This document shows positions 26,705 to 44,057 of a stretch of DNA of 64,000 nucleotides, piece after piece. The stretch is taken from positions 1 to 64,000 of IMG/VR virus record IMGVR_UViG_3300049719_000225; one strand, given 5' to 3'. Below the pieces are notes generated by a model. It saw only the letters and a list, made by a program, of their open reading frames with translations, was not told where the DNA came from and searched no databases. This stretch comes from a virus. The position numbers and the translations under genes were made by a program. Position 1 is the stretch's first letter. Every line of letters starts with the position of its first letter.

Positions 26705-29182
26705 TCACGTTCTTCCATCTTGTTCACCCTCTATAAGCCGAATTGGAACCTTTTTGGCGCTCTTTTTTCCTCTGGTTTTTTCTGATGGTGTTGGCGGTGG
26801 TTTCAAGCCCAGAAGTTCGATGCGGTACTTCGAGGGATACACCTTGGCGTCGATGTGCTGAAAGGCGGGACCGTGGCGGTTCAGGAAGACAAATACGCGA
26901 AAGTCGTCGTTTTGTATCTCTTTGTCCGTGGCGCACAGCCCCAGGGCAACGTCCACGATGCCCGCCTTCTCAAATGCTCCCTGGAATGACCCCATATCGG
27001 GTACGTCCTTGTCCACGGTCTCCTTGTTGCAGCGGTCAGGCATCACAACCACGACCCCCAATTCCTGTGCCAGTGCCCGTGCGTCCGTGTAGATGTTGGC
27101 CTGTTGCCTGTAATCCTTTTCCCCATCTCCACGGGTGGTCGGTCTGATCGTCTCAGCATAGTCAATCACGATCATCTTTGGACGTATTCCCATTTGCCGT
27201 ATGGCCATCTTGGCGTGTGCCCGAAGATCATTTATCGTGGTGCTTTTGCTGGAGAAACTCTTGAACAGAAGCTTCCCGGCCACGCCCCTTTTTTCATCCT
27301 GCATAGCATTCCACACCGCATCCTTGTAGTCTCCCGGGCAGTCGTAGGCTATATCCGTATCGATATTGGAGAGGTTGGCCATCGCCCGCATCATCGCCAG
27401 CTCCTGTGAAATTTCACAGGCGTAATAGATGACATCGTACTTCAGGTTAGGTGCCACCATGTTGAGTGCCAAGTTGAGCGCGAAATTGGTGTTGTGAGTG
27501 ACAGTGAAGTCATCTAGGAGAAACCTCTCGTTTCCATCCAAGGTGAACCCGAACCACTCCCCATCCCTAATCGGGGTTAACTTCAATTTGCAGCGGAGGT
27601 CACATTTTTTAGAATCCTTTGCCTGCTTCCTAGGAAGCCTGGTGGGGATACGCGACAACTTTCCTGATATGAACACTTTATGAGTAAGTCCCGCATAACC
27701 GATGCTCTTGATGCTGGTTTTCTCTGTTCGAGCATAGGCCCGCATACCAACACTTCGAGCCAGCCAGAGAACATCCTGGATAAGTCTCGGGTCCGAGTTG
27801 CAGAAGATGAAACCCTTGTTGAAGGCTAGGTAGCCATCACTATCAAGGAGTCCAGCCAACAACTCTAGGCGAGACGCAGTGTCATTGAACTTGTAGAGGG
27901 CCGGTACATGCTTGTTATTGAAAACGTTGAGTTGGCGCAGGGACTCCGTGATGTGGTTTATGCGATTAGTTGCTTTGGGTTTTTTGGCGAACCGCAGGAT
28001 GTCACACCCTCTACCGTGCGTCACCCCAAGCCTGAGTCCTAGTCTATTGGCATAGGAATGAAGATAGTCAGCTATTTCACCATCTTTGAACCCAACTGTA
28101 ACACCGGGTACATCCTTGGTGCCATCTCCCAGCCAGATACCCAAGAAATAGGGTTCTAGGGGCACCTCTTGGTGAGGAAATTCCACGCCCACTTTGTACG
28201 CTTGCCACTCCTTGCCAAAGTTCTTGTGGGACAGTTTTTCGCACAACTCTCTGGCAGGAATCTCCTTAATACGTTTCTCATCCTCCGACATGACGCACAT
28301 TACATGGGCGTCGTTGCATACGAAGTTGTTCCCATTTCTCTGTTCGACGTGGTACAGAGGACCAAACCCATTTCCGCAGGTTAGTACCCGCCTAGGAGTC
28401 CCATCGTCGCCCATCAGCAGGTCTCCTTCTCGTATCGTCTCCGCGAGTTTAGAGGACCCATCATGCAGCATGACGGGAGTGCCCTTTCCGAGGCACTTGT
28501 GACGCTTGGGCGGTGCGAGTGGCACGATGAGCCAGCCCGGCTTCCACCCCATCTTCCAGATGTCATCAAGGACCTTGTAACCAGTGCTTATGCCGTATTG
28601 CTCATTGGTAACCTTGTCTATGACTTTCTCATAGTCCTCGTGCAGCACGAGGCCCAGATCATCCAGATTTGTGCCCACGGAACGGGCCTGGTCGAACATC
28701 GGTCCCCACCCTTCTGGAGGCTCTTTGTTTTCCTTCAGGAGATCGATGGACTTCCGAATGGCTGCGAGAAGCGCCTGCTCCCTTGCGAACTCAACGAGCG
28801 TCTCCGAGACGTGCTCCCAGTCTGAAGTGTCTAACTCCTCCAGTCGCTTGACGTAGGAGGACACGGAGTCGTCCCCCTTCCCCTCTACATCGAGGGATCG
28901 GTTAGCGTCAGAAACGAGCTGTGCCAGGACGGGAAATGTAGGGAACTTCCCCCACTTCTCGTAGTACGCAACGGCCTCCTTCGCAGTGAGGGTTGCCTCC
29001 ACCCCACCGAAGTAGCTTGGCTTCAGACAGGGGATCACCCACCCGAGGTGGTCCGCGTGACGAATCATGCTCGCCAGAGCCAAGTCCTGATAGTCAGTGT
29101 TGAATCTGAAGCCCGCCACGTTCAGATAGAAGCAGACGCCACGGCCCGCCAGAGCTTGCTCGGTTCCGTATACACCGGGCAC
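26705..29182 (-). CDS. dnaB: Replicative DnaB-like helicase, intein-containing
   Basis: GISTGY..LD, spliced P-loop APPKRHK|T, YYACEIS, IVIDYAE, LAQELGV, NRHGP. Confidence 0.88.
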   Translation of the reverse strand: MPGVYGTEQALAGRGVCFYLNVAGFRFNTDYQDLALASMIRHADHLGWVIPCLKPSYFGGVEATLTAKEAVAYYEKWGKFPTFPVLAQLVSDANRSLDVEGKGDDSVSSYVKRLEELDTSDWEHVSETLVEFAREQALLAAIRKSIDLLKENKEPPEGWGPMFDQARSVGTNLDDLGLVLHEDYEKVIDKVTNEQYGISTGYKVLDDIWKMGWKPGWLIVPLAPPKRHKCLGKGTPVMLHDGSSKLAETIREGDLLMGDDGTPRRVLTCGNGFGPLYHVEQRNGNNFVCNDAHVMCVMSEDEKRIKEIPARELCEKLSHKNFGKEWQAYKVGVEFPHQEVPLEPYFLGIWLGDGTKDVPGVTVGFKDGEIADYLHSYANRLGLRLGVTHGRGCDILRFAKKPKATNRINHITESLRQLNVFNNKHVPALYKFNDTASRLELLAGLLDSDGYLAFNKGFIFCNSDPRLIQDVLWLARSVGMRAYARTEKTSIKSIGYAGLTHKVFISGKLSRIPTRLPRKQAKDSKKCDLRCKLKLTPIRDGEWFGFTLDGNERFLLDDFTVTHNTNFALNLALNMVAPNLKYDVIYYACEISQELAMMRAMANLSNIDTDIAYDCPGDYKDAVWNAMQDEKRGVAGKLLFKSFSSKSTTINDLRAHAKMAIRQMGIRPKMIVIDYAETIRPTTRGDGEKDYRQQANIYTDARALAQELGVVVVMPDRCNKETVDKDVPDMGSFQGAFEKAGIVDVALGLCATDKEIQNDDFRVFVFLNRHGPAFQHIDAKVYPSKYRIELLGLKPPPTPSEKTRGKKSAKKVPIRLIEGEQDGRT
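27491..28495 (-). mobile_element. LAGLIDADG intein in helicase P-loop (335 aa)
   Basis: CLGKGTPV...FLGIWLGDG...LLAGLLDSDG...FTVTHN|T. Confidence 0.95.
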
Positions 29183-30008: not shown

Positions 30009-33000
30009 ATGGCTAAAAAATCGAAACAACCACCCAAGCTTTGGCGAGACGTGGCTGCTCACAAGGAAGCCCACCAGGGGAAATTTGTGCCCGACGAGGA
30101 CAACCCCTATTGTCTGAAATGCGGGCTGTGTGCGCTGGGGTCGAAGCGCTTCCTTGGGCCGCAGGGGTCTGATGACCCCTGGGTGACAGTGGTGGTGGAC
30201 GGCGTGGGCTGGAGGGAGGACGACGCAGGGGAGGTGGCCGTAGAGGATAGCGCCAATGGAACGGTGAGGAAAAATCTGGAAGAGATGGCGGAAAGCATCA
30301 ACTTCCCGCTCGACCGTATTCGTTGGCTTCCGATGACTCGCTGTGCCAATCGAAGCAAGACCCAGGTGGATTACAAGGTGAAGGGTAATTGGTGCCGTGC
30401 GTTCGCTGTGGATGACCTGACACAGCACCCACCCAGGCTGGTCCTCGCCATTGGAAGCACGGCTCTGGGACTGCTCAGTCACAAGAGCAACGCCTTCGAC
30501 TGGGCGGGAAAGGTGCTAACCTGGAGAGGCTGGCCCGATGATTGGCTGACAAGCGCCCAATACGATGAGGGTCATCCGGCGCTGCCCCGGCCGCCCGTGA
30601 CTGAAATACCCCTCTATGCAACGCAGTCCTCTCGAATCATCTTTGCATTGCAGAACTCCCGTGAGACGGCCAGGTGGAAGGGTCAGTTGAAGGAGGCTCT
30701 GGAGTACGCCGCTGAGGGAGCTGAAATACCAGACTACGATAGGCCCTATTTCAGTTTTCTGGAGGATCCGGACGCAGTGATCGAGGCACTCAAGGCAATA
30801 CCGGACGACGCTCTTGTCACGTACGACTCGGAAACAAAGGGTCTGCTTCAGTGGGCGCAAAATGCCGCCATCGTTGCCATGATGTTTCGTTACGACGGGC
30901 CAGACGGGCCGGTCTGTTTCGGGTTTCCCTGGGACTTTGAGGAGAGCGCCCTGAAAAGTCACCTGCCCAGGATTATTCCTGTGCTGTTGGACACCTTCTA
31001 TCGTGTTCGATTGCAGGGCCACAATCTGACGTTCGACATCCTGTACGCTTACGCCACGCTGCCTGGGGCTGACCTGAGAAGGCTGACAGACGCCATGGGG
31101 TTCGACACCCGCCATCTCATTTACACGCTGCACCAGACCAAGGAAAGTCTAGGGTTGGAACTGGTAGCCTACCGTTGGTGCCCGGAAATGTCGGGGTACG
31201 AGGAGGAGTTCACACTCATCAAGGATCACACGGGTCTGAGTGACTACCTTGATCCTGGGATGGAAGCGGGCGGCCACTATTCGCGGGCACTTCTCCTGGG
31301 TGACGACGTGCGGAAGGCGTACATCACCTACATCATGGGAGACGTGGAGGTTTGCCACGTCTCGGGTGACGCAATACGGGAGAAGCTCGACAATGCACGC
31401 ATCTACCCGTTCCCGATAGCTGACCCCAACCGTCTCGGCGAGTTCAGGATGTTCTCCCCGCCTCCCCGTCGGTTCGTGTACGACAAGATCATGCTGCCGT
31501 CCAACCGCATGCTCACCCGTCTTATGGGCAGGGGCATGCACGTTGATGTGGCCGAGCTGGCGCACCAGGAAAACATCTTCCCCAAGATGATCAAGGCTGC
31601 TCGGGCTCAGTTGAGGAAAATGGACGACCGTGTGGCTCAGTGGTGTGAGGAACAGGAGGCCACTGTGGTGCTCAAGAATGGGCAACCATGGATCCTGGAT
31701 TTGGAAAGCCGAGAGCAGCTGAAGCACATCCTCTTCAATGTCATGGCGCTTCCTGTGAAGCGGCTCACAAAGACCGGCCTCAAGAAATACAAGGACACGG
31801 AACTGGCCGACATGACCGTGGAGGAACGTCTGGAGTACGCCGCCGTGGACAAGTACACCATCAACGCCCTGGCCGCTGAACACAAGGGACTGGTGGCACC
31901 CCTGCAGGAGTACAGGAAGCTCTACAAGGCCTACACGGCGTTCGTGCGCAGCATGCGCAACATTACCACGGAGGGTGTGGACAAACACGACCGGAAGCAG
32001 CCGCCCTACCTGCAGTCGGATGGGCGTGTGCACGCGAGCTTTAATCTTTGCGGAACTCGTTCTGGTAGATTGGGTTGCAGCCGACCAAACCTAGCCCAGC
32101 TTCCCTCATCTCAGAAGGTGATTGTTAAGCGAATCTACAATTCCCGGTACGGGGATGAAGGTTGCATCTATCAGGGTGACCTTTCTCAGATTGAGCTACG
32201 TCTGCTGGCCGCTGCCTCGGGAGACCCCCTCATGGTGGACGCCTACCGTAGAAACATCGACCTCCACTCACTCACTGCCAGCCATATTTTCGAGATCCCG
32301 TACGAGCATCTGCACAAGGATTACTTCGCGTGGCTTCAGAAAAATGGTCGGGAAAAGGAGGCCAAGGAACTGGAGCGGAAGCGTTCCATTGCGAAGTGCG
32401 TTGATCCATTAACGTTAGTGTCTGTTGATGGAAAAATTATACGGATAGGTTCCATTCACCCCGGCAGAGACATCGACAAGTACTACCCTATCACAGGTAA
32501 AGTCGTTCAAGTTGGTCCTCATGGTGGGAGCGGAGAAATACGACATTTCTACTCTGGAGGTGTTAAAAAGAAAGTGTTAATCTGTGCCAGAAAGGGGCTC
32601 CTTGCCTGCACCCCAAACCATAAATTTCTTCTTCATGACGGTACTCAAGTGGAGGCTGCTGATCTCAAGAAGGGTATGCAGTTGGCTGATGTTGTGCCCT
32701 TAAATCACGCTTGTGACGAGGGGAAAACGATAAGCTTACCAATAAATATATTCGGCAAGGGGATGAACAATGAAAACCTAAATTACTCCTGCCGTGTAGA
32801 CGGCGATATGAGTTACCTTCTAGGTGTCTTGTACGGGGATGGAAACGTGAACGAGAATTATTCAGCCATTTCAACAGGAGGTGATGAGAGATTTTTTAAG
32901 TGGCAGGATATAATAGCTGAGTGTGCAACTAAGTTAGGAATAGACGCTAAGATAATACGAACAGAGTTTAGCGGCACTAAAGTTTCGGAGAAGTTGGGGC

Positions 33001-34238
33001 CAATTACGGGTTCCTATGGGAAAGTGGTTTTGGGGAGCAGGCGGGTATTAGACCTTTTTGAACAACTTGGGGCAGTTGAACGCACTGAGAACAAACTGAG
33101 TAAAACACTCAAAATACCTGTTTGGCTGCTCAACGCCCCAAAGCACCTCAAATTGTCTTTTTTTGCGGGCCTGATAGATACGGACGGCTGCGTTAAGACT
33201 TCAGATGCTTCAATATCATTCTGCACAAAGTCTTGGAGATTGGCTCAGGATGTGATCGTTATGCTTAGATCAGTGGGCATTGAATCAACTCTGTACCCGT
33301 CCTGGAACTCTACTTACGAGAAGTATTACTTTGTAGTGAATGTGCCTGTAAGCTACGCTTGCCAGCTTCGAGGTTATTTACGTCACCCGGATAAAGCGTC
33401 GAAGCTGAGGGAACCAAAATGCACTTCAGGTCGAGTCAAAACAGAAAATTTAGTAACAGCCACCCTGGAAATTCCAGACGGAGAGGTAGTTGACATATCG
33501 CTAGACGACCCACATCTATATGTTCCAGAAGGACTTACCACCCACCAGACCACGAACTTCCTCACGGGATACGGTGGCGGGGCGTTCGGTCTGCAGACAA
33601 CGTTGGCCGAGGAACAGGTGTATCTCGACCAGGAGGAGTGTGAAAACATCATCGATGCGATGTTCGACACCTACCCCGTGTTGAGGAAGTACATCGGTAT
33701 CTACAAGCAGTTCATCCTGGAGCACGGGTGCGCTGTGAGTATCTTCGGACGTGTGCGTCCGTTGCCAGAGGTGGAATCCGAGGACCAGCAACTTGTGAAT
33801 AAGGCCCTGCGTGCGGGGTTCAACCACCTCATTCAGTCCACGGCCTCGGACATGATGTTACTAGCCATGGACGTGATCGACAGGACGCTTTTCGATGAGG
33901 GTCTCGAAAGCTGCCTCGTCAGCACCGTCCACGACAGCTTGGTCATCGACGCTCGCATCAGCGAACTGCCCAAGGTCCATGACATTGTGGACTGCGTGAT
34001 CAACAACCTCCCCGACATTCTGGACTCCCTGTTAGGCCCGGATTACAACAGCGACTGGTGCCGCGTGCTGCCCCTGACAGGTGACTGCGAGGTGGGACGC
34101 AACTACCACGACCAGTCGAAGATGGACAGCTTCAAGGACTCTTCGGGGGTTGTGGACTGGGAGAAGGCGCGCGAGTTCCTGCACGCCACTCCTGCTGCAT
34201 CCGACCAGTCCACTCCAGACGCCGATCTATCTCACTAG
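30009..34238 (+). CDS. polA: Family A DNA polymerase with N-terminal uracil-DNA-glycosylase-like domain and 3'-5' exonuclease, intein-containing
   Basis: CLKCGLC...RC...VLAIGSTA (UDG family 4-like); YDSET, GHNLTFD; TRSGRLGCSRPNLAQ; DLSQIELR; RSIAK|TTNF..GYG; VHDS. Confidence 0.93.
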   Translation: MAKKSKQPPKLWRDVAAHKEAHQGKFVPDEDNPYCLKCGLCALGSKRFLGPQGSDDPWVTVVVDGVGWREDDAGEVAVEDSANGTVRKNLEEMAESINFPLDRIRWLPMTRCANRSKTQVDYKVKGNWCRAFAVDDLTQHPPRLVLAIGSTALGLLSHKSNAFDWAGKVLTWRGWPDDWLTSAQYDEGHPALPRPPVTEIPLYATQSSRIIFALQNSRETARWKGQLKEALEYAAEGAEIPDYDRPYFSFLEDPDAVIEALKAIPDDALVTYDSETKGLLQWAQNAAIVAMMFRYDGPDGPVCFGFPWDFEESALKSHLPRIIPVLLDTFYRVRLQGHNLTFDILYAYATLPGADLRRLTDAMGFDTRHLIYTLHQTKESLGLELVAYRWCPEMSGYEEEFTLIKDHTGLSDYLDPGMEAGGHYSRALLLGDDVRKAYITYIMGDVEVCHVSGDAIREKLDNARIYPFPIADPNRLGEFRMFSPPPRRFVYDKIMLPSNRMLTRLMGRGMHVDVAELAHQENIFPKMIKAARAQLRKMDDRVAQWCEEQEATVVLKNGQPWILDLESREQLKHILFNVMALPVKRLTKTGLKKYKDTELADMTVEERLEYAAVDKYTINALAAEHKGLVAPLQEYRKLYKAYTAFVRSMRNITTEGVDKHDRKQPPYLQSDGRVHASFNLCGTRSGRLGCSRPNLAQLPSSQKVIVKRIYNSRYGDEGCIYQGDLSQIELRLLAAASGDPLMVDAYRRNIDLHSLTASHIFEIPYEHLHKDYFAWLQKNGREKEAKELERKRSIAKCVDPLTLVSVDGKIIRIGSIHPGRDIDKYYPITGKVVQVGPHGGSGEIRHFYSGGVKKKVLICARKGLLACTPNHKFLLHDGTQVEAADLKKGMQLADVVPLNHACDEGKTISLPINIFGKGMNNENLNYSCRVDGDMSYLLGVLYGDGNVNENYSAISTGGDERFFKWQDIIAECATKLGIDAKIIRTEFSGTKVSEKLGPITGSYGKVVLGSRRVLDLFEQLGAVERTENKLSKTLKIPVWLLNAPKHLKLSFFAGLIDTDGCVKTSDASISFCTKSWRLAQDVIVMLRSVGIESTLYPSWNSTYEKYYFVVNVPVSYACQLRGYLRHPDKASKLREPKCTSGRVKTENLVTATLEIPDGEVVDISLDDPHLYVPEGLTTHQTTNFLTGYGGGAFGLQTTLAEEQVYLDQEECENIIDAMFDTYPVLRKYIGIYKQFILEHGCAVSIFGRVRPLPEVESEDQQLVNKALRAGFNHLIQSTASDMMLLAMDVIDRTLFDEGLESCLVSTVHDSLVIDARISELPKVHDIVDCVINNLPDILDSLLGPDYNSDWCRVLPLTGDCEVGRNYHDQSKMDSFKDSSGVVDWEKAREFLHATPAASDQSTPDADLSH
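32397..33548 (+). mobile_element. LAGLIDADG intein in PolA motif B, C-terminal Gln (384 aa)
   Basis: CVDPLTLV...CTPNHKF...LLGVLYGDG...FFAGLIDTDG...GLTTHQ|T; AT-rich relative to flanks. Confidence 0.93.
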
Positions 34239-34755: not shown

Positions 34756-35487
34756 GTGACACTCGAAGAAGTTCAAGCCAAACGCAAACTTAGACACCTA
34801 GAGAATAGGGAACACAACCTTGCAGTGATGCGAGCCTATGGGAAAAGAAACAGGTCGGCTCTAACCAAAAAATCACGCGAAAGGTATAAAACTGATCCAT
34901 TGTTTAGGGCAGATATAAGGCGACGTTCCAAGAAATGGCTAGCTAAACCTGAGAGCAGAGAAAAACGTTTGGCATCTAGCAGACGGCAAACTGCCAAGAT
35001 AAAGAGCGATCCTATTAAATACCGTGAGGCTCTTGATAGGCATCTGGTTTACATGAAAGAACATGTAAGGACGCCTGAGTACAAAGAGAAGAGGAGAGCC
35101 TGGTACCAGAGGTACCATAAAAATCCCAAAAATGCGATGGTACGCAGACTAAGGTCCAGAGTAAGATTCGCTCTAAAAGCGCGTGGATTCAGTTATTCAG
35201 CGGTGACACTTCTCGGGTGTACAAAAGATGAATTTTTACGCTACATTGAATCCTTATTTGTATCTGGCATGACTTGGGAAAATAGGTGGGCTTGGCATCT
35301 CGATCATAGGAAGCCCATCGCCTCATTTGATTTCAACGATCCTGAGCAGGTGCGGGCCTGTTTTCACTGGTCAAATTATCAGCCCCTCTGGGCTCACGAT
35401 AACATCGTCAAGGGGTGTTCGGTGGTCCCAGATACTTCTTCACCGAGTCTGGCAGAGACACCCACTCCTCCATTGTCCAGTTTCTAA
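34756..35487 (+). CDS. HNH homing endonuclease
   Basis: LLGCT...GMTWEN...WHLDHRKP.ASFD...CFHWSNYQPLWAHDN; own late motif 3 nt upstream. Confidence 0.85.
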   Translation: MTLEEVQAKRKLRHLENREHNLAVMRAYGKRNRSALTKKSRERYKTDPLFRADIRRRSKKWLAKPESREKRLASSRRQTAKIKSDPIKYREALDRHLVYMKEHVRTPEYKEKRRAWYQRYHKNPKNAMVRRLRSRVRFALKARGFSYSAVTLLGCTKDEFLRYIESLFVSGMTWENRWAWHLDHRKPIASFDFNDPEQVRACFHWSNYQPLWAHDNIVKGCSVVPDTSSPSLAETPTPPLSSF

Positions 35488-37882
35488 TCAATGGCCATAC
35501 GTTAGGCCCTTGAACGTACATGTGTGCGTTACGGTAACCCGGAACCAATTTTCCTTTCATAAGAACCCCGTCCACCCACTCCTGCATCCTGTAATTTTTA
35601 TCATCGGCGTGGCCACTGCCGAGATGCTTGCCTGCAATCTCGTCCAGCGTCTTTCTAGTGGCGCTAAAGTGGTAGATGTCATACCCGAATAGCTCGTGGC
35701 GATAACCGTAGGTTCCTCGGCAGTGCTCGAAGGTGGCATCCGTGCGGGCATAGATGGTGGCCTTGTCGAGAGCGCCCTCTATCGGATAGCCAGGCAAGCC
35801 CGCCACGGGCACCATGCCTGTGAAGACGCTCATGGGCCAGCGCTCCCGCACCATCTCGTTCATTCGGGCCAGCATCCCAGGACGCCATAGTTCATCGCCG
35901 TCCATGATGATGGTGTGTTGGAACCCCCGTGCTCCGCAGAAGCGTTGGTACCAGTTGCGGCAGTCGGTCTCTACCTTGATGCGCTCCTGTCTCACGTTCG
36001 CCACCTTCGCCACCTCGAAAGGAATGAACTCGACACCGTATGGGTGGGGGTAGTCCGGGTGGTTCTCCCTCAGCCACTTATTCAACCAGATGTTCAACCG
36101 ATCTGCAATCTTGGAAACCTCTTGGCGTTCATCCTCGTTAGCAGGAGCACCATCCCATCGCATGCTCGGGGCGAACAGGAACACGTTTTCGATTCGGTCC
36201 TGAAGCTCAGTGGTTTTGGAGAGCTTGATGCCCTCTTCAAGGATCCGCTGGCACACCTCGAACAAACACAGGTCGTCTCGGATGGCTTGCACGACTACCG
36301 CATATCGCACGGGCACCGCAGCGTACTCGGCAGACCTAGGTCCGTCATCCAGCGGAAAGCCCAGGTTCTTGCGGAAATTGAACAGTGTCTCGCCGAAGTT
36401 CCAGCGCTCCATGCTGGCGTGTTTCAAGTCCACCTCATCGCGAGGCCTCTTGCCACAGTCTGGGTGCATGTGCTCGAAGAGGAGGTGGCGGGCATCCACA
36501 ATGACGCGATCCTGCGAGGCCACGTAAGTGAACTCGGTGTCACTGTTGTGACTCAAGTAACCGTCTGCCACGTAATTCTTGGTTTCTGTAGAGAGGCAAT
36601 AAACGTCGGTTGTATTGTCGTCGTCGTTGAGCCCCCAGTAAGTGGGCTCGATAGAAACAATCTCATCAGGCGAACCGTAGCGTGAGGTGAACATCCTCTT
36701 GGACACCTGTTTTTTGAAAGTACGTACAGGTCGAGTCCACGCTAAAAACTTTAGGTATTCTTCACGGCCACCCGTGAGCGTGAAAACCTGTTGAGTGACG
36801 GGGGCACCCCGGTATTTTCCGTATGAACGGTCTGTAGAGAATTGGAAACCCAGACGACGAAGAACGCGACCAATCTCGGCGCACACTTCTGGGTTCTTAT
36901 CCAGCGACTGGGAGATGCACGGGAAGCTGCCCTCGCCATCATACATTCCAGCTAACCAACCCAAATCTCGTACGGACTCTGGATCGGTAGGGGCAGGCGG
37001 GGGAGTTTCCAGCACCCTAAGAAGTTTGCGCCCTATTTTAGGCTCTCCCCACCTAATCTGTCCAAACCCCCTTTGCCTAGCGTACCCAGCCGTTGTACGC
37101 AGAATTTTTCCCTTCTCATTTCTCAGATATTGACGGGTATCGCCGTAGTAGGCCCACACATGGTCGGGGGTGCATAGGAGAGTTTTTCCCGATTTCAGAG
37201 TGAGTTTTACAACTCGATCTCGTTTCTTGTGCACCTCAAGAACCTTTGATGGCTGCAAGAAATCACGAGGCTGCACCCCTCGACCAGGCCGTCTTGATGA
37301 TCCGACAACCATATCACCTGGTACGATGTCCCTAATGGCTTTGAACGTCTGGTTCGCCATGTAAATGGGAGTATCAGGCGGAAGGCAGAAGAGACTCTGG
37401 TATCCTGGGTAGAAGACGTAGCCGAACCGCTCGTAGCGTCTGCGGGTAAGGATGGCCAAGGTCAGCAGGTCGGGGTTGTAGCCATCCTTCACCCACATCA
37501 CGATCTCGTTCTTCCACCAACCCCAGGGGATGGTTTCGATGATGCCCTTATCCCAATGGACGGGTACGTCAAAGTCATCGGCCACGCAGATGATGATGTC
37601 ACCCGCGGCGCGACTGGCAGCCGTGTTCCAGCCTGAGACGCAATTCTTGGGGCCGGTGTTGGGAACGCCGCGGATACTGCGGTGCTTCAGGGAGGCATCG
37701 GCCACTAGCTGGATGATGTTGTTGCACACCGCTGTGTCACCTTCATCGTAGCAGATGATGAACTCGACGTTCGACGGATCGTTGGCTCGTTCAAGCCAAC
37801 GTCGCACTGTCAATTCCACCGCTCCTGGTCGTACTGTTGTATAACAGAGGGAGAATATGGGAGCGGGTGCGGGTGTACTCAC
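35408..37882 (-). CDS. Two-domain GT-A (GT2-like) glycosyltransferase, intein-containing
   Basis: GWNTAASRAAGDIIICVADDF; second domain IIMDGDELW. Confidence 0.8.
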   Translation of the reverse strand: MSTPAPAPIFSLCYTTVRPGAVELTVRRWLERANDPSNVEFIICYDEGDTAVCNNIIQLVADASLKHRSIRGVPNTGPKNCVSGWNTAASRAAGDIIICVADDFDVPVHWDKGIIETIPWGWWKNEIVMWVKDGYNPDLLTLAILTRRRYERFGYVFYPGYQSLFCLPPDTPIYMANQTFKAIRDIVPGDMVVGSSRRPGRGVQPRDFLQPSKVLEVHKKRDRVVKLTLKSGKTLLCTPDHVWAYYGDTRQYLRNEKGKILRTTAGYARQRGFGQIRWGEPKIGRKLLRVLETPPPAPTDPESVRDLGWLAGMYDGEGSFPCISQSLDKNPEVCAEIGRVLRRLGFQFSTDRSYGKYRGAPVTQQVFTLTGGREEYLKFLAWTRPVRTFKKQVSKRMFTSRYGSPDEIVSIEPTYWGLNDDDNTTDVYCLSTETKNYVADGYLSHNSDTEFTYVASQDRVIVDARHLLFEHMHPDCGKRPRDEVDLKHASMERWNFGETLFNFRKNLGFPLDDGPRSAEYAAVPVRYAVVVQAIRDDLCLFEVCQRILEEGIKLSKTTELQDRIENVFLFAPSMRWDGAPANEDERQEVSKIADRLNIWLNKWLRENHPDYPHPYGVEFIPFEVAKVANVRQERIKVETDCRNWYQRFCGARGFQHTIIMDGDELWRPGMLARMNEMVRERWPMSVFTGMVPVAGLPGYPIEGALDKATIYARTDATFEHCRGTYGYRHELFGYDIYHFSATRKTLDEIAGKHLGSGHADDKNYRMQEWVDGVLMKGKLVPGYRNAHMYVQGPNVWPLIRNWTMEEWVSLPDSVKKYLGPPNTP
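36545..37387 (-). mobile_element. LAGLIDADG intein in glycosyltransferase (281 aa)
   Basis: SLF|CLPPDTPI...CTPDHVW...WLAGMYDGEG...YVADGYLSHN|SDTEF. Confidence 0.92.
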
Positions 37883-38162: not shown

Positions 38163-38190
38163 TTTACAAAATCATCACCCGCCCTATTAT
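38163..38190 (+). promoter_or_regulatory. Early sigma70-like promoter TTTACA-N16-TATTAT
   Basis: Context TTTTAGTGTTTACAAA is repeated at 42575-42590. Confidence 0.65.
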
Positions 38191-38232: not shown

Positions 38233-38916
38233 ATGGGCCTCAAACCACTAAAGCTAGAAGTCGCCGCCGCTCCCTCTGCTAAGAAGAGCGACGTTCCCGC
38301 CCGCACCCTTGCGGGCGTTGCCATTGCCGAGTTCATTCGCCTGAAGGCCGAGGTCGAGGACCGCGCGGCCCGCATGAAGACCCTTGAAGAGGAGATCAAG
38401 CTGGCGGGCTGCACTGAGGTGATCAGCATCAACTGTGAGAACGCCACGAATCCCGTGTCCTCAGTCAGGCTGCAGGACGACGAGGGTGCCAAGGCCACCG
38501 TCTCCTTCACCTCCAAGTACAGCGACATCGACGCCGATGCGTTCAGCGCCGTCTTCGCCGAGATCAACGCCCGCAGGAAGGCCGCTCGCCTGCCTGCCGT
38601 CAGCGAGGCTGAGTACGCTCAGTTCGTCATCGCTGCCAAGCTGAACGATGTCGCCTTCTACGACAAGGACGGCAACTTTCAGGAGGCCGTCTACGCTGAG
38701 GTCCGCAAGGCCCTCGATGCCGTAGCCGCCAAGCTGGTGGCCGCAGGCAAGGTCGCCGCTGGCACCCCGCTCTACACCGAGGCTCAGAAGGCCCGTGTCA
38801 AGCCGACCTTCCACGCCAAGCGGTGGGAGTTGGGCGTCGAGGACAACACCTCCCTGCTCGGCACCGTCCGCAACACCGTCACGCTCAAGCCCGTTGCTGG
38901 CACCGTCGCCGCCTGA
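38233..38916 (+). CDS. Early hypothetical protein
   Basis: 227 aa, strong C-ending codon bias. Confidence 0.75.
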   Translation: MGLKPLKLEVAAAPSAKKSDVPARTLAGVAIAEFIRLKAEVEDRAARMKTLEEEIKLAGCTEVISINCENATNPVSSVRLQDDEGAKATVSFTSKYSDIDADAFSAVFAEINARRKAARLPAVSEAEYAQFVIAAKLNDVAFYDKDGNFQEAVYAEVRKALDAVAAKLVAAGKVAAGTPLYTEAQKARVKPTFHAKRWELGVEDNTSLLGTVRNTVTLKPVAGTVAA

Positions 38917-38920
38917 TCCC

Positions 38921-39220
38921 GTGAACGTCGCCTCTCAAACCCTCTACTACCTCCCCCTGACGGGGGCCGATCTCACCTACCTGCTGGATACCTTGCAGGG
39001 CCGTGCCTCCCTCCCGCTGCCCAATGAGCGCGACCTGGCCCGTTCCCTTCGCAGCATCGAGCAGGTGCTGCCCGAGTCCCAAGTCGAGCAGGTTCAAGAG
39101 ACCGTGAAGGCAGGGTTTGAGCAGGCCCGTTCGCAGGCAGCGGATCTCAAGGACCACGCCGTGGCCCTTTGCAAACTCATCAACGAAGCACAGAAACGCC
39201 CGTCAGAATTTTCACTCTAA
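38921..39220 (+). CDS. Early hypothetical helical protein
   Basis: GTG 38921 fills the gap between neighbours. Confidence 0.55.
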   Translation: MNVASQTLYYLPLTGADLTYLLDTLQGRASLPLPNERDLARSLRSIEQVLPESQVEQVQETVKAGFEQARSQAADLKDHAVALCKLINEAQKRPSEFSL

Positions 39221-39224
39221 TCCA

Positions 39225-40349
39225 ATGACCGCATCCCCCCAAGGAGTCGAAGTCCTCCGCAACGCCACCCTGTTCAGCTTGACCCGCTCCTCGTGGAGCA
39301 ACTACCGCAAGGCCGACCGCAGCAAGGTCAGCATTCAGGGTTACTCCACCGATCTGGATGGTGCCACCACCTCCGTCAGTGACGCCGCCACCAAGCGGGT
39401 GAACGTCACCAAGAAGCTGGTCGAGTCCGAGCAGTTGGACAACGTCCGCAAGTACATGAACGAGGTGTACGACTGGTGCCTCAAGCACTGCATGCCGTCC
39501 ACGGCCATCCGCAAGGGCATCTACTTCGTGAAGAACAACCAGGTGCCCGTCTTCGAGGAGAAGCTGACGCACGCTCTCGATGAACTGCGCAGCACGATCC
39601 TGCCCTCCTTCCTTGAGCCCAACCCCAATGCGGTCCTTGAGGACGGCTCGCCCGATGTGGCCCGCCGGACTTTCTCTCCGTACGAGCTGGCCAAGGAAGC
39701 GGCCAAGAAGCCCACGGTCGAGGGTGGCCTGGGCGAACTGTACGACGAGGACGACTACCCCACCGTGGAAGAGCTTCGGAAGGCTTTCAACCTGCGTTGG
39801 TCGTGGCTCCAGTTGAGCGTGCCCGACGAGTTGCCCGAGGAGGTTCGGGTGCGTGAGGTCAGCAAGCTCAAGGCCAGCTTCCTTGAGGCTCAGGAGGAGA
39901 TCAAACTGGCTCTCCGTGCGGGCTTCAAGGACCTTGTTTCACACGCCATCGAGCGCCTGACCCCCGGTCCTGACGGGAAGCGTAAGGTGTTCTGCGAGAG
40001 CACCTTCACCAAGTTCAACGAGTTCTTCGAGACCTTCAACGCTCGTAACCTCATGGAGGACGCTGAGTTAGAGGCCGTCGTGGAACAGGCAAAGGAGATC
40101 ATGAAGGGCCTCCCGAGCGTGGATGACCTCCGCAGCGCCGAGAGCCGTCGCCTCGCCTCACTCATCAAGCAGAACGAGAAGAAGGGTAACATGGTCAAGG
40201 TGGCTGAGTTACAGAAGCAGCTTGTCGAGCAGGAGAAGGCCGACGCTCAGGTTCTTGAGTCCACGGTGGCCCAGTTCGCCAAGGTGGACGAAGTGCTCGC
40301 CCCGCTCGTTCTCACCCCCACCCGCCGCTTCAACTTCGAGGAGGAGTAA
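39225..40349 (+). CDS. DUF3150-like helical protein
   Basis: TKKLV, KGIYFV, YDEDDYPTVEELRKAF...W; ends RRFNFEEE. Confidence 0.6.
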   Translation: MTASPQGVEVLRNATLFSLTRSSWSNYRKADRSKVSIQGYSTDLDGATTSVSDAATKRVNVTKKLVESEQLDNVRKYMNEVYDWCLKHCMPSTAIRKGIYFVKNNQVPVFEEKLTHALDELRSTILPSFLEPNPNAVLEDGSPDVARRTFSPYELAKEAAKKPTVEGGLGELYDEDDYPTVEELRKAFNLRWSWLQLSVPDELPEEVRVREVSKLKASFLEAQEEIKLALRAGFKDLVSHAIERLTPGPDGKRKVFCESTFTKFNEFFETFNARNLMEDAELEAVVEQAKEIMKGLPSVDDLRSAESRRLASLIKQNEKKGNMVKVAELQKQLVEQEKADAQVLESTVAQFAKVDEVLAPLVLTPTRRFNFEEE

Positions 40350-40366
40350 AAAACAGCACTTTGTGC

Positions 40367-40394
40367 TCGACATTCACGCTCCAAAACACATAAT
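40367..40394 (+). promoter_or_regulatory. Sigma70-like promoter TCGACA-N16-CATAAT
   Basis: 8 nt upstream of the AAA ATG, in an AT-rich gap. Confidence 0.5.
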
Positions 40395-40402
40395 AGACTT
40401 CA

Positions 40403-42058
40403 ATGAAAGCCCCCACCGCAAAGAAACACCCGATCATCGCCGTCAGGCGCGCAGGCGTTCCGCTCATCGCATTCGAGACGAGCGATCCCGCTCAGACCAT
40501 CGTGCAGGTCAACAAGGCCCTCAATGGTAGCTCCTCCAACGTTCCGCTCCTGCGGTGGGACATCGTGAGGGGACTCGTTGGCCTGAACCCTCTCGGTCAG
40601 CAGCGTGTCCAGTCCATCCTCAGCAAGTGGCTCAAACAGGAGGGGGCCGGTGAATCCAAGGAGGAGCAGGCCGAGCGCCAGGCGGCCACCTGTGACCCGT
40701 CCTTCACGCTGAACCTCCTGCGCAAGGTGGCCGAGGACTTCACGCCCGCCAAGCCGAGCCTCATCGACAGCGGCCTCATCTTCTTCATGAACGCCCACCT
40801 GTTCTTCAAGTCTGAGGTGGTGCTGCAGGCCATGTGGAACCTCCGTGACGCCCTGAAGCCCACGGCTGCCACGCTGGTCGTCCTCTGCCCCGCCATGAAG
40901 CTGCCCGAGGAACTGACGCACGATGTCGTGGTCATCACTGAGCCGCTGCCGAACGCCGAGGAAGTCGGCGTCATCGTGGACAGCATCGCCAAGGACGCCA
41001 AGTGCGACATCGATCCCGCCGACAAGCCGAAGGTGATCGACACCGTTCTTGGCGTCAGCGCCTTCGCCGCCGAGCAGGCCCTTGCTATGAGCATCGGCCC
41101 TGTGGACGGCAAGGTGGTCCTAGACCGTGACGAACTGTGGGAGCGCAAGCGCAAGATGGTCGAGAACACCGAGGGCCTGACGATCCACCGTGGCAAGGAG
41201 TCCTTCAACGACGTGGGCGGGCTCTCCAACGTGAAGGCCTTCCTCACGAAAATCCTCCAGAGCGGCAACAACCCCGTCCGCTGCATCGGCTTCATCGATG
41301 AGATCGAGAAGATGTTCAGCGCTGCCTCCACGGGCGGCGACATGAGCGGCGTGTCGCAGGACCAGCTCAAGGTGCTTCTCACCGAGATGCAGGACAACGA
41401 CATCCCCGGCATCATCTTCGTTGGGCCTCCTGGCACGGGCAAGAGCGCCGTCGCCAAGGGCGCGGGTTCGCTCGCCGAGGCCGAGGTGATCAGCATCGAC
41501 ACGGGTGCCATGACGGGCAGCCTCGTTGGCCAGTCGCAGGCCAAGATCAGGAGCGCCTTCGCCACGTTCAAGGCGGTGTCGCAGGGCAAGGGCCTGTTCA
41601 TCGCCACCTGCAACAAAATCGCTGCCCTGCCGCCCGAACTGCGCAGGCGCTTCACGCTCGGCACGTTCTACATCGACCTGCCGAACGCCGAGGAGCGTGC
41701 CGCCATCTGGCCGCTCTGGCTCAAGAAGTACGCCGCCATGGAGGGCAGCAAGCTGACGCTCAAGAGCGAGCAGCCCGACGACGAGGGTTGGACGGGTGCC
41801 GAGATCAAGGCCTGCTGCGATGTCGCCTATCGGGCGAACATCTCCCTCAAGGAGGCTGCGTCCTACATCGTCCCCGTCAGCAAGTCGTCCGCTGACCAGA
41901 TCAAGGCCCTGCGCCAGATGGCCTCTGGAAAGTTCATCTCGGCCAGCAAGGCGGGCATCTACCAGTACGTTGAGAACGAGGCCGACGCTGCGGCTGCGGC
42001 CTCCCTTGACGGCACGAAGCGCCAGACCCGCAGGTTCGGCAGCGAGGAGAAGGCTTAA
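40403..42058 (+). CDS. Ycf46-like AAA+ ATPase with internally permuted ATPase domain
   Basis: FNDVGGL, FIDEIEK (41291) before GPPGTGKS (41423), FIATCN, LPPELRRRF, IDLPNAEER, GWTGAEI. Confidence 0.9.
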   Translation: MKAPTAKKHPIIAVRRAGVPLIAFETSDPAQTIVQVNKALNGSSSNVPLLRWDIVRGLVGLNPLGQQRVQSILSKWLKQEGAGESKEEQAERQAATCDPSFTLNLLRKVAEDFTPAKPSLIDSGLIFFMNAHLFFKSEVVLQAMWNLRDALKPTAATLVVLCPAMKLPEELTHDVVVITEPLPNAEEVGVIVDSIAKDAKCDIDPADKPKVIDTVLGVSAFAAEQALAMSIGPVDGKVVLDRDELWERKRKMVENTEGLTIHRGKESFNDVGGLSNVKAFLTKILQSGNNPVRCIGFIDEIEKMFSAASTGGDMSGVSQDQLKVLLTEMQDNDIPGIIFVGPPGTGKSAVAKGAGSLAEAEVISIDTGAMTGSLVGQSQAKIRSAFATFKAVSQGKGLFIATCNKIAALPPELRRRFTLGTFYIDLPNAEERAAIWPLWLKKYAAMEGSKLTLKSEQPDDEGWTGAEIKACCDVAYRANISLKEAASYIVPVSKSSADQIKALRQMASGKFISASKAGIYQYVENEADAAAAASLDGTKRQTRRFGSEEKA

Positions 42059-42059
42059 C

Positions 42060-42563
42060 ATGAGCCACGTCGAAACCTGCAAAGTGGCCTTCAAGGACCT
42101 TGCGGCGGTGAAAGCCGCCTGCAAGGCCCTGGGGGTCACCTTCGTGGAGGGCAAGACCCACTTCAACTGGTACGGCCAGCATGTCGGCGACTACCCGATC
42201 ACGAAGGAAATGTCTGACGCTGGCATCACGAAGGAAAACATCGGCCAGTGCGCCCACGTCATCCAAGTCCCAGGCACCACCTGGGAGGTTGGCCTGTGGC
42301 CCATGAAGAACCAGCCCGGCTCCTTCCTGCCCGTCTACGACTTCTACGGCGGGCAGGGCGCTGTGCTCCAGAAGGCCCTTTGCAAGGGTCCTGGCTGGCC
42401 CCAGACGCCGAAGAACTACAGCGGGTACAGCGTTGGGCTGGAGAAGCTGGCTGACCACTACTCCCTCGAAGTGCTCAAGGCCAAGGCCCGTGCGAAGGGC
42501 TACCAGTTCAAGGAAACGCAGGTTAATGGCAAGATAAAGCTGGTCGTTTCCCTCGGAAACTGA
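42060..42563 (+). CDS. DUF1257 (Ycf35-like) protein, copy 1
   Basis: MSHV...FKDLAAVKAACKALG, WEVGL, YSLEVLKAKARAKGY. Confidence 0.75.
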   Translation: MSHVETCKVAFKDLAAVKAACKALGVTFVEGKTHFNWYGQHVGDYPITKEMSDAGITKENIGQCAHVIQVPGTTWEVGLWPMKNQPGSFLPVYDFYGGQGAVLQKALCKGPGWPQTPKNYSGYSVGLEKLADHYSLEVLKAKARAKGYQFKETQVNGKIKLVVSLGN

Positions 42564-42582
42564 AAAAACCCTGTTTTTAGTG

Positions 42583-42610
42583 TTTACAAAGTGCCCCCAA
42601 CCCTTAGTAT
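42583..42610 (+). promoter_or_regulatory. Early promoter TTTACA-N16-TAGTAT, leaderless geometry
   Basis: ATG 6 nt downstream; same upstream context as 38163. Confidence 0.65.
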
Positions 42611-42616
42611 GAAATC

Positions 42617-43078
42617 ATGAGCCATATTGAAAAATGCTCGGTGGTCATCACCGACCTAAAAGCGCTGAAGGCGGCGTGCGAGACCCTCGGTCTCACACTG
42701 TCAGAGGGACAGAAAAAGTTCGTTGGCTACTACGGTGCCAAGAACCCATGCCAGCACGCCATCAAGGTGCCTGGCGTGTCGTGGGAGGTTGGCCTGCTCT
42801 CGGCTGACACGGAGGGCAACAAGGTGAAGGGCTGGACAACGGCCTTCGATCCGTTTGGCACGCAGGGCCAGACCATCGCCTCCAAGCTGTGCAAGAAGCA
42901 CGGCGAGCAGTACGGCCAGCCCGTGTACAAGCACAAGGACGGCACGCACCACTGCGAGACGCTGATGAACCAGTACTCGCTGGAGGTTCTGAAGGCGAAG
43001 GCCCGTGCGAAGGGCTACCAGTTCAAGCAGACCACCGTGGACGGCAAGATCAAGCTGCAGGTGACCCTCGGCAACTAA
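42617..43078 (+). CDS. DUF1257 protein, copy 2
   Basis: MSHI...ITDLKALKAACETLG, WEVGL, identical YSLEVLKAKARAKGYQFK. Confidence 0.75.
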   Translation: MSHIEKCSVVITDLKALKAACETLGLTLSEGQKKFVGYYGAKNPCQHAIKVPGVSWEVGLLSADTEGNKVKGWTTAFDPFGTQGQTIASKLCKKHGEQYGQPVYKHKDGTHHCETLMNQYSLEVLKAKARAKGYQFKQTTVDGKIKLQVTLGN

Positions 43079-43106
43079 CCCCCAACCTCTCAAATCCAAA
43101 AAACAC

Positions 43107-43319
43107 ATGACAACCTTCGGCACACCCAAAAAGACCATCACCTTCACCATCGAAGACGGGGAGGTCACCTCTGAGGCCCACGGCTTCACGGGCAAGGCCT
43201 GCGAGGCCGCGACCAAGTTCTTCACCGATGCTCTCGGCGGCAAGACCACCAAGAAGACGTTCAAGCCCGAGTACTACAAGACCGAGAAGTCCTTCGCTTC
43301 TCAGACGGCGGGGAACTGA
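43107..43319 (+). CDS. DUF2997 protein
   Basis: ITFTIEDGEVTSEAHGFTGKACEAAT...ALG...KPEYY. Confidence 0.8.
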   Translation: MTTFGTPKKTITFTIEDGEVTSEAHGFTGKACEAATKFFTDALGGKTTKKTFKPEYYKTEKSFASQTAGN

Positions 43320-43322
43320 ACC

Positions 43323-43589
43323 ATGAGCCGCATCGCCGTATTCTCCATCGAAGACGGGGAGGTCACCGCACTGGCTGGTGGCCCCCTGTCACTGGCCGAC
43401 ATGGGCCAACGCTCCACCGAGCGGGCTTCCCACCTTGAGTTCAATGCCGACCTTGGCGTTGGAGGCGAGTGGGAGGTCACCGACCACAAGACGGGAGTCC
43501 TCCTGTTCACCCACGCCGACTACGACGTGGCCCTGCAGTGGGAGGCCGACCACTACAACCAGTTGCTTCTGGAAGGAGGTGCGTCATGA
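43323..43589 (+). CDS. Small acidic protein of the AAA module
   Basis: FSIEDGEVT, ERASHLEF, ALQWE. Confidence 0.65.
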   Translation: MSRIAVFSIEDGEVTALAGGPLSLADMGQRSTERASHLEFNADLGVGGEWEVTDHKTGVLLFTHADYDVALQWEADHYNQLLLEGGAS

Positions 43590-43939
43590 GTCTCGCTGGC
43601 CACCTTTCCTCCGACGAACTGGTCATCAAGCCCGGCGGCGTCTATCAGGGCAAGACGATTGCCTGGACGTGGCCGTTCAATTCGCAGACCAACCCCGACA
43701 GGAGCTACAGGTGCCTCCTCTTCGAGGACGGTTCCCTGACGTGCAACTGCCCAGGCTGGGCCAAGCGGGTGGTGAACGGCGTGCGTGAGTGCAAGCACAC
43801 GCAGTTCGTCGCCTCGTCGCTTGAGATGGTCCAGAACGGAGGCGCATTCGTTGAGAGCATGGCCCCCGCTCAGAAGGCGATGTTTGTAACCGCCAAGGAC
43901 AACTGGAGCCGCAGCCGTCGCAGGTTCAACTTCGACTAG
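43586..43939 (+). CDS. SWIM zinc-finger protein
   Basis: LTCNCPGW...RECKHT; ends RRRFNFD. Confidence 0.75.
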   Translation: MSLAGHLSSDELVIKPGGVYQGKTIAWTWPFNSQTNPDRSYRCLLFEDGSLTCNCPGWAKRVVNGVRECKHTQFVASSLEMVQNGGAFVESMAPAQKAMFVTAKDNWSRSRRRFNFD

Positions 43940-44021
43940 ACTTTGGGATGGTATGGTGCGCAGGGAGATCCTGCGACAGGGGGTTTGGACCAGTGTTTTC
44001 CCCCACATGAAATCCCTCCCG

Positions 44022-44057
44022 AGCGCCCCGCCGATAATCGGCGGGGCGCTTTCTTTT
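44022..44057 (+). terminator. Rho-independent terminator closing the early operon
   Basis: AGCGCCCCGCCGA-TAA-TCGGCGGGGCGCT then TTCTTTT. Confidence 0.85.

Follow-up and report, generated by a model that had tools for sequence, protein, structure and literature searches.

A phage AAA ATPase family with the Walker B block ahead of the Walker A block and a predicted conserved fold

The AAA+ core is among the best-studied enzyme folds, and its Walker A motif is taken always to precede Walker B, an assumption also built into profile models and annotation pipelines. In classical AAA domains, the elements follow one another along the chain as b1 (Walker A)-a1-b2-a2-b3 (Walker B)-a3-b4, and the sheet has the spatial order 5-1-4-3-2, with all strands parallel and starting at one edge. 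Among P-loop NTPases, re-ordered nucleotide-binding motifs have their nearest precedent in the circularly permuted GTPases RsgA/YjeQ and RbgA/YlqF, in which the motifs run G4-G5-G1-G2-G3 (PMC6912228). Herein, an AAA ATPase with the reverse order of its two Walker blocks is described from a 64,000-nucleotide stretch of viral DNA (hereafter the window), which comprises positions 1 to 64,000 of the 98,115-bp IMG/VR record IMGVR_UViG_3300049719_000225. The open reading frame (ORF) lies at 40403–42058 on the + strand, stop included (translated 40403–42055), and encodes a protein of 551 residues, P0001. Judged from its sequence, the protein would descend from and work like Ycf46-type classical AAA ATPases, yet it breaks their linear order. 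Like the permuted GTPases, which retain function, its family represents a natural and conserved re-ordering of nucleotide-binding motifs in a P-loop NTPase. Unlike these members of the TRAFAC class, which are true circular permutations with relocated domain termini, it has helix a0 and the b4-a4-b5-lid portion in place, and two internal blocks are exchanged.

In the C-terminal half of P0001, FNDVGGL (aa 268–274, helix a0) is followed by CIGFIDEIEK, the GDMSGVSQDQ loop and LLTEMQD (aa 325–331, helix a3), then by GIIFVGPPGTGKS (Walker A, aa 336–348) and SIDTGAM..SLVGQSQAKIR (strand 2, pore loop 1 and helix 2), and finally by LFIATCN (sensor 1), LPPELRRRF and IDLPNAEER. The Walker B strand and its helix (segment B, aa 290–333, 41270–41401) thereby precede the segment that carries Walker A, strand 2, the pore loop and helix 2 (segment A, aa 334–396, 41402–41590). 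The Pfam AAA model PF00004 matched the protein at 62.1 bits, above its gathering threshold of 21.2, with the match split into two stretches: in a six-frame search of the record, model positions 45–95 were found at nt 41228–41398, upstream of positions 1–55 at nt 41411–41575. In a phmmer comparison with PDB sequences, p97 D2 aligned to aa 266–286 (a0), 335–389 and 398–478, skipping aa 290–333, and phrog_8638 matched the ATPase in four stretches (2.3e-44). A preliminary description of the window had placed Walker B ahead of Walker A and had expected two out-of-order local hits in an alignment to AAA hidden Markov models (HMMs); the translation and the Pfam positions bear this out. Its approximate junctions at 41280, 41400 and 41590 agree with the segment borders at 41270, 41402 and 41591, whereas the AAA module as a whole (about 41168–41977) proved larger than the interval 41200–41720 first assigned to it.

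The module is preceded by an N-terminal degenerate AAA-like (D1-like) domain that carries neither Walker A nor Walker B (aa 1–255, 40403–41167). The module begins with a linker and helix a0 in their usual place (FNDVGGLSNVKAFL..., aa 256–289, 41168–41269), to which the p97 a0 aligns. Segment B, delimited by the Pfam match and by an AlphaFold2 model (strand 294–298, helices 303–309 and 317–331), contains b3 with Walker B (CIGFIDEIEK, aa 294–303, 41282–41311), the pore-loop-2 region and a3. Segment A, delimited by Pfam, the family HMM and the model, contains b1 with the Walker A P-loop GPPGTGKS (aa 341–348, 41423–41446), a1, b2, pore loop 1 (TGSLVGQS, 41513–41536) and a2. Directly after a2 come strand b4 with sensor 1 (GLFIATCN, 41591–41614) and the second region of homology with the candidate arginine fingers (LPPELRRRF, 41627–41653). 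Strand b5 and the helical lid subdomain, as placed by the model and by structural alignment (aa 418–525, 41654–41977), close the module ahead of a low-confidence C-terminal tail (41978–42055; predicted local distance difference test, pLDDT, 41–55).

All catalytic motifs are intact, as had been claimed at the outset. Walker A fits GxxxxGK[ST], Walker B fits hhhhDE (IGFIDE, aa 295–300), and the protein has the sensor 1 Asn and the second region of homology with candidate Arg fingers that characterize classical AAA proteins. Conservation was counted over 268 family members that are about 36–60% identical overall. In Walker B, E300 is invariant (268/268), D299 is present in 264 members and replaced by Glu in the other four, and K303 is present in 267. 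In Walker A, G344 is likewise invariant (268/268), with K347 in 265 and S/T348 in 264 members. Sensor 1 N404 was found in 262 of the 268 proteins, R415 in 254 and R416 in 262. Such conservation points to selection acting on a working ATP site.

The block order could in principle reflect a chimeric or mis-joined contig or an annotation artefact, since the source is a linear, metagenome-derived IMG/VR contig whose completeness CheckV puts at 43%. The breadth of the family leaves this explanation a vanishingly small probability. Homologues with the same order, which the preliminary description had proposed to seek, turned out to be abundant. A word-indexed search returned 1447 relatives (90% clusters), and when 1.84 billion cluster representatives were searched with a profile, 16,323 matched at E <= 1e-3, of which 2,679 reached E <= 1e-30. 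The best 150 of the 50%-identity cluster representatives, all at E <= 1e-146, share the swapped order; a single stretch was matched in 141 of them and two stretches in nine, most of the latter being over-long proteins that bear inteins. Every member of the 15-sequence and 88-sequence family alignments has the same block order, and 80 of 80 IMG/VR viral loci are colinear with the family HMM. By a strict regular expression, Walker B comes first in 247 of the 268 family proteins, the remainder being motif variants or intein carriers. The order also occurs in gp103 of Tunturiibacter phage Tunturi_3, an isolated podovirus with a complete genome; this protein is 36% identical to the window protein. 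Because it is kept in all close homologues examined as well as in an isolated phage genome, the order is neither a chance feature nor an assembly error. Hundreds of independent assemblies share it together with the junction lengths, the reading frame is uninterrupted, and conservation extends to the junction residues.

The nature of the rearrangement was defined by comparison with normal-order relatives that are homologous over both domains, namely Aeromonas phage HJ05 gp65 (WEV89366.1) and an Agrobacterium phage JP1_048 protein (XLQ31056.1). Both are normal-order, Ycf46-like ATPases of a kind encoded by phages and mobile elements. These proteins share with P0001 the two-domain build, in which a classical AAA module follows a degenerate N-domain, as well as GDxSG.. 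after Walker B, an LVG pore loop, LPPEL..R..R and LP..EER. In contrast to P0001, their Walker A block is followed by the Walker B block, and each gives a single, full-length Pfam AAA match (positions 1–129 of 131). Sensor 1 reads ATCN, with Cys, in the window family and TAN in HJ05 and JP1. The window family has conserved junction motifs of its own, namely NPVR (before b3), IPG (before b1) and SQGKG (before b4). An HMM built from the 88-sequence alignment was compared with a version in which the columns of block B (aa 290–333) and block A (aa 334–396) had been exchanged. The native HMM matched HJ05 and JP1 in four pieces, in the target order HMM 14–257, 307–364, 268–305 and 370–446 (116 and 110 bits), whereas the column-exchanged HMM gave one colinear match of 147 and 143 bits, about 30 bits more. 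P0001 and Tunturi_3 gave the mirror image of this result, and Tunturi_3 gp103 matched the family HMM colinearly at 446 bits. The N-domain is included in the homology, as HMM positions 14–257 align to HJ05 residues 17–274, and the Walker B block of P0001 is homologous to that of the normal-order proteins. By this test, the rearrangement is a clean swap of two neighbouring blocks; a0 keeps its position, and so does all that follows from b4 on.

Accordingly, the proposal that b3-a3 and b1-a1-b2-a2 trade places while the termini stay fixed is upheld by the swap test and the out-of-order Pfam matches. The term "non-circular" holds in that both domain termini are fixed; formally, it has to be refined, as the internal A-B block is itself circularly permuted. 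Both internal borders lie just ahead of a conserved proline. At the first (/ marks the border), the normal ..MA/PCV..DE.DK corresponds to ..NN/PVRC..DEIEK in the swapped proteins, and at the second, ..Q/PKG..GPPGTGKS corresponds to ..ND/IPG..GPPGTGKS. The linkers at the junctions are fixed in length, with a 10-residue window kept in 259 of 261 members and an 11-residue window in 253 of 261, and conserved residues mark the new junctions (P291, R293, P335, G336 and S393-Q394-G395-K396).

The Tunturi_3 protein (XOB77284.1), annotated only as "ATPase", has the swapped order and is followed by DUF1257 and DUF2997 genes, as is the window ATPase. It differs in its divergent P-loop, GVPGVSKS, and in its host virus, a podovirus of Acidobacteriota. 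The name "Ycf46-like" rests on the Joint Genome Institute (JGI) labels of relatives, "SpoVK/Ycf46/Vps4 family AAA+-type ATPase", and on the equivalence of DUF1257 with Ycf35. Membership in a known defence system was considered and rejected, the similarity to IetA/IteA and TRIP13 being generic and partial AAA similarity only. The IetA/IteA anti-phage AAA ATPase model of NCBIfam gave 39 bits against a cut-off of 510, and the PADLOC match (E 3.9e-11) covered the C-terminal part only.

The AAA fold appears to be kept in the model despite the rewiring. AlphaFold2, run with the family alignment, gave P0001 a mean pLDDT of 92.6 and a predicted template modelling score of 0.86. The D2 module of this model has exactly five strands (294–298, 336–340, 361–365, 397–403 and 421–423) plus helices, and the model of the normal-order HJ05 protein (pLDDT 89.2) contains the same elements, nearly equal in length, in the other order. 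Taken as a whole, the model is similar to type II AAA proteins (p97, Cdc48, Rix7; Z 19.6, 414 residues aligned, 4.7 Å), and because these have a D1-D2 arrangement, the N-terminal half is read as a D1-like domain with neither Walker motif. P97/VCP, Cdc48 and Rix7/NVL thus share the overall D1-D2-like fold, and 200 residues of the D2 core and lid can be superposed at 2.6 Å; unlike these proteins, the window protein has an N-domain devoid of nucleotide-binding motifs and a different D2 connectivity. Against 6g2v (p97 D2), the swapped model aligned over 200 residues (2.6 Å, Z 17.4) and the normal-order model over 247 (2.3 Å, Z 24.7). The corresponding figures were 207 versus 264 for 3cf0_A, 200 versus 249 for 6g2x and 205 versus 253 for 4d82_B, and a similar shortfall was seen for 6g2w and 6bmf_B. 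This deficit of about 47–57 residues at unchanged root-mean-square deviation roughly equals the length of block B (44 aa) and its linkers, and is explained if, assuming that VIA-align 2 keeps chain order, only one of the exchanged blocks can be in register.

Furthermore, mean-field direct-coupling analysis was applied to 262 family sequences (effective number 180). Its top pairs include G296-F399 and I301-A401 between b3 and b4, G296-I365 between b3 and b2, and F339-I424 and V340-Y423 between b1 and b5. The second strongest pair, C294-S393, spans what was the covalent a2/b3 junction in the ancestral order. E302-P343 brings the Walker B turn beside the P-loop, and D320 couples with G368, Q379 and R383, which links the pore-loop-2 region to both pore loop 1 and a2. 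In strand-block statistics, the background fraction was 0.011 for b3-b4, 0.023 for b1-b5 and 0.069 for b3-b2, and none of the six non-adjacent strand pairs stood out. These couplings suggest that the Walker B strand sits between strands 4 and 2. The earlier idea that loop reconnections could keep the fold is therefore supported indirectly, by the five D2 strands of the model, by the b3-b4, b3-b2 and b1-b5 coevolution and by the 2.6 Å superposition on p97 D2.

Coevolution is blind to whether a contact lies within one chain or between the chains of a homo-oligomer, which leaves room for an alternative in which the DEIEK block is not catalytic in its own subunit. Either the module would then act as a pseudo-ATPase or a scaffold for binding, or segment B would insert into the neighbouring subunit as a three-dimensional domain swap, giving an interlocked ring. 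This alternative is very improbable. D299/E300, K347, N404 and R415/R416 are near-invariant, and a scaffold would have no need for them. A domain swap is opposed by the a3-to-b1 connector, which has a fixed length of about four residues and ties segment B to its own b1, and by the AlphaFold2 monomer, in which all five strands lie in one domain with pLDDT of at least 95 around residues 291–300 and 331–345.

The reading that is highly probable is that of an exchange of blocks in a Ycf46-like two-domain AAA ATPase with a rewired, fold-keeping D2. The protein is predicted to be a phage two-domain classical AAA ATPase with a degenerate D1-like N-domain and an active D2-like module. The normal D2 path a0-[b1/Walker A-a1-b2-pore loop 1-a2]-[b3/Walker B-a3]-b4 would become a0-[b3/Walker B-a3]-[b1/Walker A-a1-b2-a2]-b4. 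Because b3, b4 and b1 adjoin in the 5-1-4-3-2 sheet and start at the same edge, the new connections would shift by only one or two strand slots, namely one for a3-to-b1, one for a2-to-b4 and two for a0-to-b3. Each b-a-b crossover would keep its direction and each helix its face, so that right-handedness is preserved and the fold, the ATP site and the pore loops would be retained. In the predicted ATP site, K347 would act with D299/E300 and N404, and R415/R416 would be contributed by the neighbouring subunit. As a best guess, the function would be the one assumed for normal-order relatives, namely the remodelling or unfolding of protein substrates by an ATP-driven ring during infection, together with the co-encoded DUF1257 (Ycf35-like) and DUF2997 proteins. 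The same job is presumed because the same gene module is occupied. ATPase activity, ring formation and the class of substrate are inferred from conservation and gene context.

The evolutionary origin of the swap was approached with 53 swapped and 41 normal-order proteins, whose block order was restored in silico before alignment. The swapped proteins fell on one side of a single branch with a FastTree local support of 100. The same branch was recovered by IQ-TREE (LG+C20) with the columns of the swapped region removed, with a Shimodaira–Hasegawa-like approximate likelihood ratio test support of 100. A single derived event is the simplest account of the swap, given that the normal order is common to all other classical AAA proteins. 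It would have arisen once in a normal-order ancestor and then spread through a very large phage lineage. As the most economical guess, the route would have been an internal tandem duplication that gave A-B-A-B, from which the outer copy of each block was then lost.

Several observations weigh against this reading of the fold, function and origin. The coevolution signal for the b1-b4 adjacency is absent among the 262 sequences, probably owing to columns that barely vary, and AlphaFold2 and the coupling analysis share the alignment signal and are not fully independent. Pore loop 1, S-L-V-G, is devoid of the aromatic residue typical of substrate-threading AAA proteins, in swapped and normal-order members alike, which leaves classical threading uncertain. 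No A-B-A-B or B-A-B intermediates turned up in the 389 proteins examined, which makes the duplication-deletion route no more than the most economical guess; the junction linkers of these proteins hold no relics, and extra Walker-like regular-expression matches were scattered and inconsistent. Finally, the tree is unrooted and its normal-order sample is centred on HJ05-like proteins, so that "one origin" means "one branch" and the direction is unproven. This last point, together with the position of JP1 on a long branch adjoining the swapped group, is what favours a different history, in which the swap arose several times, or was ancestral in the phage module and the HJ05/JP1 order is a reversion. 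Such a history is very improbable, given that the normal order is seen in the other classical AAA proteins without exception, all PDB matches among them, and is thus ancestral by outgroup reasoning, and that the swapped set forms one branch with a support of 100 and has uniform junctions.

With a single derived exchange of blocks as the preferred reading, a large family of this kind would show that the AAA fold tolerates non-circular rewiring. No description of the swapped AAA family was found in open-access papers or in bioRxiv full text, the family being unpublished as far as can be told, and the paper on phage Tunturi_3 does not discuss gp103 (PMC11924767). The swapped and normal-order proteins of the same module would offer a matched natural pair for studies of folding pathways, allosteric coupling and the evolution of topology. 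In addition, homology tools may miss or mis-score such rearranged enzymes, as illustrated here by the out-of-order splitting of the domain by Pfam. A further-reaching claim would be that this is the first natural non-circular permutation, by internal segment exchange, in the ASCE/AAA+ core that has become fixed in a large, active enzyme family and, in its stronger form, that it entails distinct mechanochemistry; this is offered tentatively and is rather unlikely. In the stronger form, a direct tie would join the Walker B strand to a0 and the N-domain, and another would join the P-loop strand to a3 and pore loop 2. Such ties would change the coupling of ATP hydrolysis to the N-domain and the pore, resulting in distinct mechanochemistry or in strand exchange between subunits.

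The ATPase gene lies inside a co-oriented block (38233–43939), with a sigma-70-like promoter match just upstream (TCGACA-16-CATAAT, 40367–40394, + strand; a consensus match only). Further promoter-like matches were found at 38163 and at 42583 (42583–42610), the latter ahead of the second of two DUF1257-like paralogues, and a strong terminator-like hairpin of 14 pairs, 11 of them G-C, closes the block (44021–44051, + strand, sequence scan). The first DUF1257-like gene (42060–42563, + strand) was detected by an iterated HMM, Pfam being silent on this copy. The second (42617–43078, + strand) was matched by the same HMM and, below the cut-off, by PF06868 (E 0.015). The iterated HMM was seeded with the Pfam-positive DUF1257 proteins of Tunturi_3 and HJ05. 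A DUF2997 gene follows (43107–43319, + strand; PF11211, E 3.8e-12). In Tunturi_3, the swapped gp103 is accompanied by gp102 (DUF1257) and gp101 (DUF2997), and in HJ05 the normal-order ATPase is followed by DUF1257 and DUF2997. Because these two families adjoin both kinds of ATPase, the swapped protein occupies the same module as its normal-order relatives. Of the 80 viral loci, about 71 have a DUF1257-like ORF on the same strand, and a DUF2997-like ORF is present in about 48. In cyanobacteria, DUF1257 is known as Ycf35 and clusters with DUF2997 (PMC4284462).

Pfam gave no match at E <= 5 for the two ORFs that follow, at 43323–43589 and 43583–43939. The first begins with ..FSIEDGEVT.., like the start of the neighbouring DUF2997 protein, and the second contains a CxC...CxH (SWIM-like) pattern. 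The upstream genes at 39222–40349 (375 aa) and 38233–38916 (227 aa) had no match in Pfam, PHROGs or PADLOC, and PHROGs was silent on those neighbour genes that were tried. The ATPase tail, ending in ..TRRFGSEEKA (42023–42055), carries a G/T-R-K/R-F motif whose Arg is near-invariant across the swapped family (R543, at least 90% conserved). Two further proteins of the same gene block end similarly, in ..TRRFNFEEE (40320–40349) and ..SRRRFNFD (43916–43939), and this common ending might serve all three proteins as a docking tag.

Inteins occur in some swapped-family members, though not in the window copy. One insertion site lies between T402 and C403 of ATCN (window nt 41606–41611) and is occupied in P0249, P0138 and P0216, with the conserved family Cys as the +1 residue; the insert in P0249 is a 157-aa mini-intein ending in HN. 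A second site, in or beside the Walker A P-loop, is used in P0117, P0125, P0129 and P0262. Being both widespread and targeted by inteins, the AAA-DUF1257-DUF2997 module is probably important. The phage itself is unusually rich in inteins: intein and homing-endonuclease domains (Hint, LAGLIDADG) interrupt a DnaB-like helicase (26705–29182, - strand), a family A DNA polymerase (PolA; 30009–34238, + strand) and a GT2 glycosyltransferase (35408–37882, - strand).

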